Shown here: positions 26,598 to 37,995 of the stretch, in pieces
Numbering within the stretch: the stretch's first letter is position 1
Layout: each line of letters begins with the position of its first letter
Assembly (NCBI GenBank): GCA_951406725.2
Contig: OX597814.1
Coordinates: 172,918,001 to 172,982,000 of the forward strand
DNA length: 64,000 bases
DNA from: Octopus vulgaris
Lineage: Eukaryota
Direction: 5' to 3'
Translations under genes and position numbers: made by a program
Notes under the pieces: generated by a model
Told to the model about the DNA's origin: nothing
Seen by the model: only the letters and a program-made list of their open reading frames with translations
Databases searched by the model: none

Positions 26598-26938
26598 ATA
26601 TTTGAGACTGGAACATTGACAGTGAGTAGGTGGTAGCTTCTGAGATGATAGAAGTACAGTGCATGTAAAGCGACAAATAAAAAGGAAATATAGAAAGGAA
26701 TTAAATAAATACATGTATGAACTGATACATATATATATAAAAAACATAAAGAGTAGGATAGATGCATTGTTACATATAACAGAACAGAATGGAATAAGAT
26801 GGATAATAGATTGTGTGAGAGAGAGAGGGAGAGAGGGAGAAATATTGATAGACAGACAGACACACACAGAGACAGACAGACAGACAGATAGATAGATAGA
26901 TAGATAGATAGATAGATAGATAGATAGATAGATAGATA

Positions 26939-28857
26939 AGTGTCTTTATTGGCCACACAGGGCTGCACACAGATGGGACAAGTTACAAGGTAGAGCTTTT
27001 CTTTTGGGGGAGAAAAAAAAAAGGTGGCGTAGGTTCTCGATGAAAAGGGATCGTAAAAGGGAAGAAAAGAACAAAAAAAAAATTTTTTTTAATAAAAAAT
27101 AAAAAGAAATATAAATAAAAATAAAAAAGAAAAGGAAAAGGAGCAAAAGAAAAAAGAAATGAAAAAAGAATAAAAAGGGGAAAAAGAGGAAGAGGGAAAA
27201 AAACGATCAATAGGGATCGTGTATCACAGTGTTATGATATATGGTGTAAAGGGGAAAGCAAGTAAGGTTTATCCGTGGGAAGAAAAGCCTACGAAAAAGA
27301 CCACGGTAACCTTGGTCAATATTGTTATATGTTACCACATTTGTTTGCAAGTGGGTAACCCTCTGTTTTCAATTTCTGGGTTCATAGGATTATGCTCAAG
27401 GTGGCTTCGTCATTCATACGTGCCATCCTTGCTGCATTCACCCATCTTTTTTTTAAAACATTCGCTAGACAAAAACTTGCCTCTCTACTCTCACTTTCCT
27501 TTTCAAGTGGTACTTGAAGAAGTTGATGAGAGATTGACCAGAGAGGAAAGTGTTTGTCTCCAATCCTTTCAGACGCGTCCACCAGATACATTCTTTCGCC
27601 ATAGCCACAAGGATGATGAAAATAGCTCTGCCTTCCCGTTTGAAGGAAGGAGGCGTGACAATATTGACGATAGACTCAGCTGATAAACCGACTCGTCCCA
27701 CACGTAACAGCAGTTGTTCGACATAAGCCCACAAGTGGGAAATTGTTGGACACTGCACGAGTGCGTGCAGAACGGTTTCGTCGCTCTGACCGCATCTCGG
27801 GCAGGTCGGCCCCGTGTTTCTCGAGCCGTGTCTGTAGAGCTTATCCCGAACGGGTAGCGCTTCTCGGTAGCACTGCCAGGCCAGGGATCTCTGGAAGTTG
27901 TCCATGGGCCCTGGGCCGAAAATCGTCCCGAATAGGCGGGTCAGGTACTCCTCGTCGACGTCCAGGTTCGCCCCGAGCTCGTCGTCGTACCTCCCCTCCA
28001 CTAATCCCCTATAGAATGCTTTGGTTGTGATGAAGTCACTCAAGGTCGACCCAGGACGGCAGAGTTGCTTGAGAGCAACGCGACACTCGCGGTGCCATTC
28101 GCCCTTCCTCGGCCTCTTTTTGATCCACGACTTCAGTTCGGTCATGGAGACGAGCTGCGGGAAAGCGTGCCTCACAAACGGCGACCACACCTCTTCACCG
28201 TCGTCTACGAAGAGCCGGAGATGTCGCAGTCTCAGCGCGTGTCTGCGCATCATCAACCACGGCATGCCCAGTCCTCCTTTTAACGGGTGTTGACAGCAAA
28301 TGGATCGCCTGACCATCGGGACGCATCCTTTCCACAAGAAGCGAAAGAGAATGCGTTGTAGTTTGGTGATGGTAGGGTCGGGACAAGGTACGACGGTCAG
28401 GCGGTAGTAGATGACGGACGCGATGTACGTGTTCGCCACCTCCGCCCGACCTTTTAGGGACAGTTTCCTCTCGGCCCATTGCCGGGCGAGAGTGACCACC
28501 CTACTCGTTATCTCGTTCCAGTTCCTCTCCACTTGGAGGTCTGGACCAAACCAGACCCCGAGCAACTCAACCGGGCCGTCGGTCCAGCGTCCCACGACGG
28601 AGGCGCTGGTAGACGGCATGGGCTTGCTTCTCCAGGTGCCTAGTCGCAAGCCCACTGACTTTTCCCGGTTGATTTTCCCTCCTGTCACCGCTTCGTAGTT
28701 TTTCAGTGTCTCGCCGACCTGCTCGATGTGCTCGTGGCTAGACACTATGACGGTGACGTCGTCCGCGTATGTACACACGCTCGTCCCGCATCCCGGTTCT
28801 CGCGGGATGCCCCTCAAAGTTGCCAGCTTCCGCAATAATGGCTCGAGAGTCAATACG
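26939..28857 (-). mobile_element. Tx1-type (L1 group) LINE, 5'-truncated copy 1
   Basis: ORF2 fragment with [48 protein letters not shown], zf-RVT-like region and CPRC...H...C knuckle. T-rich 3' UTR with AATAAA. (GATA)n on both sides. Small indels near 27465. Confidence 0.93.
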
Positions 28858-28910
28858 TGATAGATAGGTAGGTAGGTAGATAGATAGATAGACAGACAGA
28901 TAGATAGATA

Positions 28911-29266
28911 AGTTTCTTTATTGGCCACACAGGGCTGCACACAGATGGGACAAGTTACAAGGTAGAGCTTTTCTTTTGGGGGATGAAAAAAAAACAAAAA
29001 ACAAAGGAAACAAAAAAGAAGGTGGCGTAGGTTTTCGATCAAAAGGGATCGTAAAAGGGGAAAAAAGAGCAAAAAATAATAAAAAAGGAAAAGGAGCAAC
29101 AAAAAAAGGGGGGAGGGGAAGAGGAAAAAAAATGATCAATACGGATCGTGTATCACAGTGTTATGATGTAAGGTGTAAAGGGGAAAGCAAGTAAGGTTTA
29201 TCCGTGGGAAGAAAAGCCTACGAAAAAGACCACAGTAACCTTGGTCAATATTGTTATATTTTACCA
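28911..29266 (-). mobile_element. Tx1 copy 2 (3' UTR only)
   Basis: Close match to 26939-27335. (GATA)n on both sides. Confidence 0.9.
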
Positions 29267-35487: not shown

Positions 35488-37193
35488 ATGTTTCTTTATT
35501 AGCCACACCGGGCTGCACACAGATAGAACAAATTACAAGGTAGAGCTTTTCTTTTGAAGGGTTAGAAAAAAAAAAAAAAAAAGGAAGGGGGAGTTTCGAT
35601 CAAAAGGGATCGTAAAAGGAGAGAAAGAGGACAAAAAAAGGGGGGGTTTAAAAAAAAGGGGGGAGGAAAAAAATTGATCAATAGGGATCGTTATCACAGA
35701 AATGTCAATATGAAGTGTAAAGGGGAGGACAGGTGAGGTTTACCCGTGGAAAGAAAAGCCTACGGAAAAGACCACGGTAACCTCGGTCAATGAAGTCACA
35801 TTTTATATTTCTTTTTTTTTTTTTTTTTTTTTTTTTGCAAATAAGCAACTCTCTGTTTTCGATTTCTGGGTTCATAGGACTATGCTCAAGGTGGCTTCGT
35901 CATTCATACGTGCCATTCTTGCTACATTCACCCATCTTTTTTTAAAACATTCGCTAGACAAAACTTGCCTCTCTACTCTCACTTTCCTTTTCAAGTGGTA
36001 CTTGAAGAAGTTGATGAGAGATTGACCAGAGAGGAAAGTGTTTGTCTCCAATCCTTTCAGACGCGTCCACCAGATACATTCCTTCGCCATAGCCACAAGG
36101 ATGATGAAAATAGCTCTTCCTTCCCGTTTGAAGGAAGGAGGCGTGACAATATTGACGATAGACTCAGCTGATAAACCGACTCGTCCCACACGTGACAGCA
36201 GTTGTTCGACATAAGCCCACAGGTCGGAAATTGTTGGACACTGAACGAGTGCGTGCAGAACGGTTTCGTCGCTCTGACCGCATCTCGGGCAGGTCGGCCC
36301 CGTGTTTCTCGAGCCGTGTCTGTAGAGCTTATCCCGAACGGGTAGCGCTTCTCGGTAGCACTGCCAGGCCAGGGATCTCTGGAAGTTGTCCATGGGCCCT
36401 GGCCCGAAAGTCGTCCTGAACAGGCGGGTCAGGTACTCCTCGTCGACGTCCAGGTTCGCCCCGAGCTCGTCGTCGTACCTCCCCTCCACTAAACCCCTAT
36501 AGAATGCTTTGGTTGTGTTGAAGTCACTTAAGGTCGACCCAGGACGGCAGAGTTGCTTGAGAGCAACGCGACACTCGCGGTGCCATTCGCCCTTCCTCGG
36601 CCTCTTTTTGATCCACGACTGCAGTTCGGTCATGGAGACGAGCTGCGGGAAAGCGTGCCTCACAAACGGCGACCACACCTGTTCACCGTCGTCTACATAG
36701 AGCCAGAGATGTCGCAGTCTCAGCGCGTGTCTGCGCATCATCAACCACGGCATGCCCAGCCCTCCTTTTAACGGGTGTTGACAGCAAATGGATCGCCTGA
36801 CCATCGGGACGCATCCTTTCCACAAAAAGCGAAAGAGGATGCGTTGTAGTTTGGTGATGGTAGGGTCGGGACAAGGTACGACGGTCAGGCGGTAGTAGAT
36901 GACGGACGCGATGTACGTGTTCGCCACCTCCGCTCGACCTTTTAGGGACAGTTTCCTCTCGGCCCATTGCCGGGCGAGAGTGACCACCCTACTCGTTATC
37001 TCGTTCCAGTTCTTCTCCACTTGGAGGTCCGGACCAAACCAGACCCCGAGCAACTCAACCGGGCCGTCGGTCCAGCGTCCCACAACGGAGGCGCTAGTGG
37101 ACGGCATGGGCTTGCTTCTCCAGGTGCCTAGTCGCAAGCCCACTGACTTTTCCCGGTTGATTTTCGCTCCTGTCACCGCTTCGTAGTTTTTCA
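35488..37193 (-). mobile_element. Tx1 copy 4, 5'-truncated, ORF2 C-terminal part uninterrupted
   Basis: Open frame 37193-35872 ([17 protein letters not shown]...[18 protein letters not shown]...ATLSIVL), differing from copy 1 at few residues. (GATA)n on both sides. Confidence 0.93.
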
Positions 37194-37385
37194 AGATAGA
37201 TAGATAGATAGATAGATAGATAGATAGATAGATAGATAGATAGATAGATAGATAGATAGATGGATGGATAGGTAGATAGATAGATAGATTGATAGATAGA
37301 TAGATAGATAGATAGATAGATAGATAGATAGATAGATAGATAGATAGATAGATAGATAGATAGATAGATAGATAGATAGATAGAT

Positions 37386-37746
37386 ATGTTTCTTTATTAG
37401 CCACACAGGGCTGCACACAGACAGAACAAATTACAAGGTAGAGCTTTTCTTTTGGGGGTAAAAAAAAGGGGGTTGGTTTTCGATCAAAAGGGATCGTAAA
37501 AGGAAAGAAAGAGGACAAAAAAAGGGGAGGATTTAAGAAAAAGGGGGGAGAGGGGAAAAAATAGAAAAGGGGAGAGGAAAAAAAAGTTGATCAATAGGGA
37601 TCGTAATCACAGAAATGTCAATATGAAGTGTAAAGGGGAGGACAGGTGAGGTTTACCCGTGGAAAGAAAAGCCTACGGAAAAGACCACGGTAACCTCGGT
37701 CAATGAAGTCACATGTTATATTTCTTTTTTTTTTGCAAATAAGCAA
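37386..37746 (-). mobile_element. Tx1 copy 5 (3' UTR only)
   Basis: Close match to 35488-35846. (GATA)n on both sides. Confidence 0.9.
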
Positions 37747-37995
37747 AGATAGATGGATGGATAGATGGATAGGTAGATAGATAGATAGATAGATAGATAG
37801 ATAGATAGATAGATAGATAGATAGATAGATAGATAGATAGATAGATAGATAGATAGATAGATAGATAGATAGATAGATAGATAGATAGATAGATAGATAG
37901 ATAGATAGATATATATATAGATATAGATAGATAGATAGATAGATAGATAGATAGATAGATAGATAGATAGATAGATAGATAGATAGATAGATAGA
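37747..37995. repeat. (GATA)n microsatellite
   Basis: Long, nearly pure tetranucleotide tract. Similar tracts at 9254-9410, 37194-37385 and 59681-59807. Confidence 0.97.

Follow-up and report, generated by a model that had tools for sequence, protein, structure and literature searches.

A stretch of 64,000 nucleotides of Octopus vulgaris DNA (contig OX597814.1, positions 172,918,001 to 172,982,000; below, the window) raises the question of how a long interspersed nuclear element (LINE) comes to lie five times within short repeats, in two head-to-tail clusters and in a single orientation. The preliminary description of the window had read the five copies as a recently active family specific for (GATA)n, and its coordinates agree with ours to within 1-3 bp, all copies being on the minus strand. 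As it had noted, every copy has the same 3' end, GTGTGGCYAATAAAGA(A/C)AC(A/T)T, which passes at once into ATCT repeats without poly(A), and all five 5' truncation points abut (TATC)n or one of its variants. Following these copies through the genome, we find a LINE with two open reading frames (ORFs), an apurinic/apyrimidinic endonuclease (APE) and a reverse transcriptase (RT), that sits almost only in (TATC)n/(GATA)n and in one orientation, probably because its ORF2 protein (ORF2p) nicks arrays that already exist. We refer to it as the GATA lineage.

The genome searched comprised 2.8 Gb in 227 contigs. After duplicate removal 188 copies were scored, 106 of them with end A, 39 with end B, 31 with end S and 12 with variant ends. 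Canonical 3' ends continued into ATCT in 172 of 176 cases, and those of lineage U in 20 of 20; poly(A) was found at none of the 188 scored 3' ends. Seven 3'-shortened ends could likewise all have joined at ^ATCT, and for one of them this is unambiguous. A reversed copy of subfamily S (L124:563-1891, plus strand) lies in a GATA array with its 3' end 2 nt short. The idea of an opposite-strand sister family was rejected, since the usual orientation was found in 29 of 30 copies of subfamily S.

5' junctions were callable in 157 copies (in 24 others the junction lay out of view, and 7 were left uncalled). Under a strict rule, the 30 nt upstream of the junction had to contain 11 nt in perfect TATC phase, and 129 of the 157 passed. 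So did 89 of 112 outermost copies, that is, copies not behind another one, which bears out the earlier claim that the outermost 5' ends, too, join (TATC)n. By the same rule 0.44% of positions pass in 400 kb of genome chosen by position, and 0.27% in the rest of the window, so chance is excluded as the source of these flanks. Inspection by eye assigned the 28 misses to decayed or variant arrays (12; TGTC, TACC, CATC), caller errors with TATC just upstream (5), inverted or internally rearranged copies (5), short TATC runs behind another copy (2), foreign DNA at the break (2), a reversed copy in a GATA array (1) and a copy in (CATA)n (1). Only one copy, the young L117 in a (CATA)n tract, lies clearly in another repeat; its 3' flank still starts with ATC, followed by a short duplication.

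Among copies picked by endonuclease match alone, 39 of 40 had TATC-type arrays on both sides, and all four met in the 400 kb of position-chosen DNA had their 5' junction at TATC. In that DNA TATC arrays are outnumbered 1.3-6 times by TA, CA and TATG arrays, which the element nevertheless leaves unused; (TC)n arrays are equally common and are likewise not used by the GATA lineage. Kojima (2015) counts a family as target-specific when one sequence type makes up >20% of its flanks (PMC4494074); here the figures are 129/157 at the 5' and 172/176 at the 3' side. Genome-wide, therefore, the 5' flanks are mostly TATC rather than unique, and a specific preference for (GATA)n/(TATC)n, as proposed, is borne out. 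Unambiguous 5' flanks closed in ATCT in 14 of 22 cases (p=1.4e-4), and 5' microhomology averaged 1.08 nt against 0.66 expected.

These junctions suggest a course of insertion modelled on established target-primed reverse transcription (TPRT). ORF2p would nick a pre-existing array and prime reverse transcription there. The GATA strand would be cut first, at AGAT^AGAT, with priming at the 3' end of the RNA and no poly(A) being copied. The second nick, at ATCT^ATCT, would follow some variable number of repeat units further downstream, and the 5' side would be joined with 0-4 nt of microhomology. Priming from the second of these nicks would fit the reversed copy at L124. Since insertion would leave repeat on both sides, later copies of any subfamily could land beside an earlier one and pile up head to tail.

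What chooses the repeat can be approached through a sister family, T, which we found by searching with an Argonauta protein. This element is 5.85 kb long, its ORF2 is 72% and its endonuclease 68% identical to those of subfamily A, and it ends in the same CAGCCC..GTGGCCAATAAA without poly(A). Its target, however, is (ATT)n rather than (TATC)n. (ATT)n follows each of the 49 scored 3' ends and precedes each of the 13 full-length 5' ends, although in both counts many are tandem-array units, which are not independent of one another. Eleven truncated 5' ends were more mixed: three lay at ATT, one at an ATT/AAT mixture, two at the edge of the ATT tail of a dispersed repeat and one in unique DNA, and four were chimeras or internal deletions. 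No cross-use was seen: of 239 TATC-family ends (not deduplicated) none lay in ATT, and of the 49 T ends none in TATC. Family T also forms long arrays of head-to-tail full-length units with a 5.87-kb period and (ATT)4-7 spacers (L281-L330; for example G000:C4:93803118-93834472), and the small contigs C47 and C50 appear to consist largely of such units. Three T copies (L282, L286, L299) stand at the end of a common dispersed repeat resembling a short interspersed nuclear element, whose other copies precede (ATT)n.

In an RT tree of unnamed relatives together with Argonauta, turtle and sea cucumber proteins, A, S and U formed a clade (100/98) adjoined by T (83/91), and all grouped with the Argonauta protein (99/99). 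The endonucleases of A, S, U and T have the hairpin loop NR(I/V)GSSRS in common. Repanas et al. call the hairpin between the equivalents of L1 T192 and S202 crucial for target recognition (PMC1950540); a loop shared by TATC and ATT families therefore weakens a simple model in which the loop reads the target. T differs from all TATC lineages at ~30 other endonuclease positions; T-specific differences occur in the N-terminal part, behind the YAP motif and, as an insertion of three residues, close to the L1 R155 region.

We lean towards the protein (endonuclease/ORF2p) as what mainly selects the repeat, perhaps with some help from pairing to a read-through (AUCU)n RNA end, because 3'-shortened copies and the reversed copy are still found in GATA arrays. 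Phase alone is no proof of sequence reading, since the inferred nicks and the ATT junctions are all TpA steps. In an alternative that we consider unlikely, RNA-DNA pairing mainly makes the choice. Here the endonuclease would cut loosely at TpA, the transcript would run past AATAAA into the repeat, priming would be productive only where the nicked AGAT-3' end pairs with its (AUCU)n tail, and a changed tail would switch the target, as in the ATT family. The complete lack of poly(A), the AATAAA just before the junction (7 nt before the element's 3' end), the loop common to both kinds of family and the ATC retained at the 3' flank of L117 all fit such pairing, and Repanas et al. do name factors beyond nicking specificity in targeting (PMC1950540). 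Contigs of three runs guessed to be RNA extend past the 3' end into the repeat, a weak point in its favour given that passenger transcription or DNA could produce them; these runs cover the element's 3' end but show neither autonomous transcription nor where the RNA ends. Pairing does not account, however, for the 3'-shortened copies, which were primed inside the element and yet sit in TATC, nor for the reversed copy, which could not pair with an AUCU tail. The second-strand phase is biased too, and the ~30 endonuclease differences of T, including the insertion near L1 R155, also speak against it. A related proposal, that a self-programming tail brought about the GATA/ATT switch, the transcript picking up a short repeat from its landing site and pairing then reading the target, seems to us similarly doubtful.

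Nicking of pre-existing arrays by ORF2p presupposes that the arrays were there first. For target-site duplications (TSDs), 59 copies were informative, having a repeat variant within 20 nt in the 3' flank. The same variant piece closed the 5' flank in 12 of them, against 1.2+-1.1 (maximum 7) in 1000 shuffled pairings; matched lengths were 8-25 nt, in part inflated by periodicity. Longer TSDs were looked for, but none was convincing; L113 lies in a higher-order minisatellite. This excess argues that the arrays pre-existed the insertions. The opposite order, in which the element goes into AT-rich sites and itself supplies the (TATC)n at both of its ends by reiterative or template-jumping synthesis, appears very improbable. 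In 11 of the 12 marked TSDs the array carries on upstream of the duplicated piece, copies as young as 99% are flanked by decayed compound arrays, and arrays without the element are plentiful, making up 25 of 31 TATC arrays sampled in the 400 kb, with 8 more in the window. Array length is also symmetric, at a median of 62 nt on one side of the insert and 56 nt on the other (p=0.59, n=85).

Besides the shared hairpin loop, several observations weigh against targeting of existing arrays as we propose it. The sampled copies were mostly top matches and hence biased towards young ones. Forty-seven of the 59 informative copies had no marked TSD, so duplications must often be very short or absent, and the many copies without a TSD are also what element-made repeats would give. 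Two sites fall within dispersed repeats, whose paralogous empty positions hold TATC/GATA in only 1 of 51 and 1 of 28 cases and mostly (TA)n/(CA)n, a result neutral to unfavourable for targeting that fits element-made repeats too. Lastly, array pre-existence is read from occupied loci and paralogous positions.

Pile-ups like those in the window are frequent, with 44 of 157 copies directly behind another copy's 3' end. In the unbiased 400-kb sample ~4 of 29 array sites were already occupied, so much of the piling up can be put down to saturation of a finite target; a special hot-spot mechanism was not established and is not needed. Cluster 1 of the window opens with a (GACA)n/(GATA)n array (26870..26937, plus strand, as are all arrays given here), a target remnant that forms the 3' flank of copy 1. 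Copy 1 (26938..28858, minus strand, as are all copies) is a 5'-truncated member of subfamily B comprising the end of the RT, the zf-RVT domain and the 3' untranslated region (UTR), and is 96% identical to other B copies. A (GATA/GGTA/GACA)n spacer (28859..28909) separates it from copy 2 (28910..29266), an older 3' UTR with a B-type end, 85% identical to the nearest fetched copy, and a (GATA)n array (29267..29381) forms the outer 5' flank. A local direct duplication (29273-29444 / 29523-29694, 87%) adjoins this cluster.

Cluster 2 begins with a short GATA-type array (35090..35108) at the 3' flank of copy 3 (35109..35445). This copy, too, is an older 3' UTR (88% to its nearest relative), and its 5' break lies, as previously described, at a microhomology, the 4-nt ATAG/CTAT. 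Beyond a (GATA)n spacer (35446..35487) follows copy 4 (35488..37193), a young member of subfamily A, 99.5% identical to other loci, with a 3' UTR and a C-terminal ORF2 part that is indeed open (35872-37193); ATCT closes its 5' flank without microhomology. Another (GATA)n spacer (37194..37385) leads to copy 5 (37386..37746), a 3' UTR with an A-type end and again older (87% to nearest), and the cluster ends in a (GATA)n array (37747..37996) at its outer 5' flank. The youngest copy of this cluster thus stands between two older ones. That the clusters might be tandem duplications or assembly artefacts, as true tandem duplicates at a few loci elsewhere (L057/L064, L069) and the near-identical 5.87-kb arrays of the ATT family could suggest, is refuted by the differing subfamilies, truncation points and ages of their members, and solo copies elsewhere show the same flanks. 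The five copies are independent insertions of different ages. Elsewhere in the window there are a fragment of a distant LINE ORF2 (21112-21405, 36% to the C-terminal part) and another local direct duplication (53510-54164 / 57409-58022, 83%).

A natural full-length copy with both APE and RT (L043) measures 6217 bp and consists of a 5' UTR of ~220 nt, an ORF1 (714 aa) containing a single CCHC knuckle, an ORF2 of 1145 aa and a 3' UTR of 390 nt. ORF2 encodes an APE endonuclease, an RT and a zf-RVT motif, with Pfam Exo_endo_phos, RVT_1 and zf-RVT all above cut-off. Its best match in PDB is human L1 ORF2p (E 1e-53, vs 1e-19 for R2), and the catalytic endonuclease residues align. ORF1 gave Pfam zf-CCHC at E 0.003, below cut-off though the CCHC motif is present, and matched neither Transposase_22 nor RRM; ORF1 of the Tx1 clade is described as of the RRM/zf-CCHC type, not Transposase_22 (PMC5203782). 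An ORF2 with N-terminal APE, RT and C-terminal zinc-binding motif downstream of an ORF1, along with the footprints of TPRT (common 3' end, variable 5' truncation, TSDs and 5' inversions), places the GATA lineage by sequence in the L1 group of retrotransposons without long terminal repeats (non-LTR), and likely in the Tx1 clade. The 5'-inverted copies at L038, L066, L079 and L195 have a structure like that of twin priming, as in L1.

Judged by divergence, the lineage has been active recently. The best 150 genome matches to the endonuclease are 99-100% identical, ~114 of them in open frames of at least 1121 codons, and among 51 long copies of subfamily A the mean difference over 1.5 kb is 0.68%, with 70 of 1275 pairs identical. 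The three lineages with the TATC target are 81-83% alike in ORF2, however, U being 81-82% identical to A and S. The recent activity and the target proposed for the window copies thus stand, but this is not one young family: the lineage is long-lived and contains several subfamilies that were active recently; likewise, only copy 4 in the window has the youth ascribed to the family, copy 1 being at 96% and copies 2, 3 and 5 at 85-88% to their nearest fetched relatives. 5' ends have been swapped between lineages. A and S are 96-99% identical over the first ~600 nt and 57-92% over the remainder (L043, L197, L332, L119, L113), U opens with the same 5' sequence, and subfamily A bodies bear three different 5' ends.

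A first pass returned at least 1221, 2356 and 1888 candidate loci for three 3' UTR queries and at least 692 for one 5' UTR query. Four copies in the forty position-chosen 10-kb stretches that make up the 400 kb correspond to ~10 per Mb, or roughly 28,000 copies genome-wide, a figure with a wide margin as it is extrapolated from four events. The nearest named homolog is an Argonauta hians protein (68% in RT). Relatives in a metagenome scan were mostly 24-37% identical, with two at 44-45%, and the nearest group beyond the octopod set comprises ORF2 proteins of ~1150 aa, ~40% identical, in clusters of up to 732 members (P0002-P0031, P0136-P0155).

The abundant intact copies offer a natural contrast between three TATC lineages and a 72%-identical ATT sister that differs outside the loop usually credited with target choice. 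Domain and tail swaps within this pair would make the question of endonuclease versus RNA pairing testable for APE-type LINEs, and how these pick their targets bears on tools for site-specific gene insertion. Six of 31 sampled GATA arrays are transposon landing sites, which is relevant to marker design and assembly.

Microsatellite-targeting non-LTR retrotransposons of other clades include Dong, Waldo and Mino. Togen in (TG)n and some HERO families likewise target microsatellites, but belong to other clades and use a restriction-like endonuclease instead of APE (PMC4640811). Among Tx1 LINEs such targets are already known, with Kibi in (TC)n and Koshi in (TTC)n of teleosts and crocodilian families in (TTCC)n/(TTTC)n (PMC4494074). 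A 2026 repeat annotation of Octopus vulgaris lists 80 L1-Tx1 families, 13 of them recently active, which probably include the GATA lineage; neither its main text nor its supplement uses the word 'target' (PMC13282606). The GATA and ATT targets appear new, as no Tx1 family with either was found in the literature at hand, part of it in extract; Repbase, Kojima and Fujiwara 2004 or the supplement of PMC4494074 may list one.

Like Kibi, Koshi and the crocodilian families, the GATA lineage is an APE-type LINE of the L1 group specific to a microsatellite, related families using different repeats. Compared by target, those families occupy pyrimidine tracts, whereas the mollusc element uses mixed-base GATA/TATC and its sister ATT. 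Tx1L of Xenopus is another sequence-specific APE-type LINE, with 5'-AGTT downstream of the nick where we infer 5'-AGAT (PMC1950540, PMC4494074), but its target is the transposon Tx1D and its hairpin loop, as described for the LTx chimera, is two residues longer. With human L1 (PDB 8sxt, 1vyb) the GATA lineage shares ORF2 layout, catalytic residues, TpA scission, 5' truncation, 5' inversions and short microhomology; it differs in having no poly(A), a strict repeat target and a CCHC-type ORF1 rather than Transposase_22.

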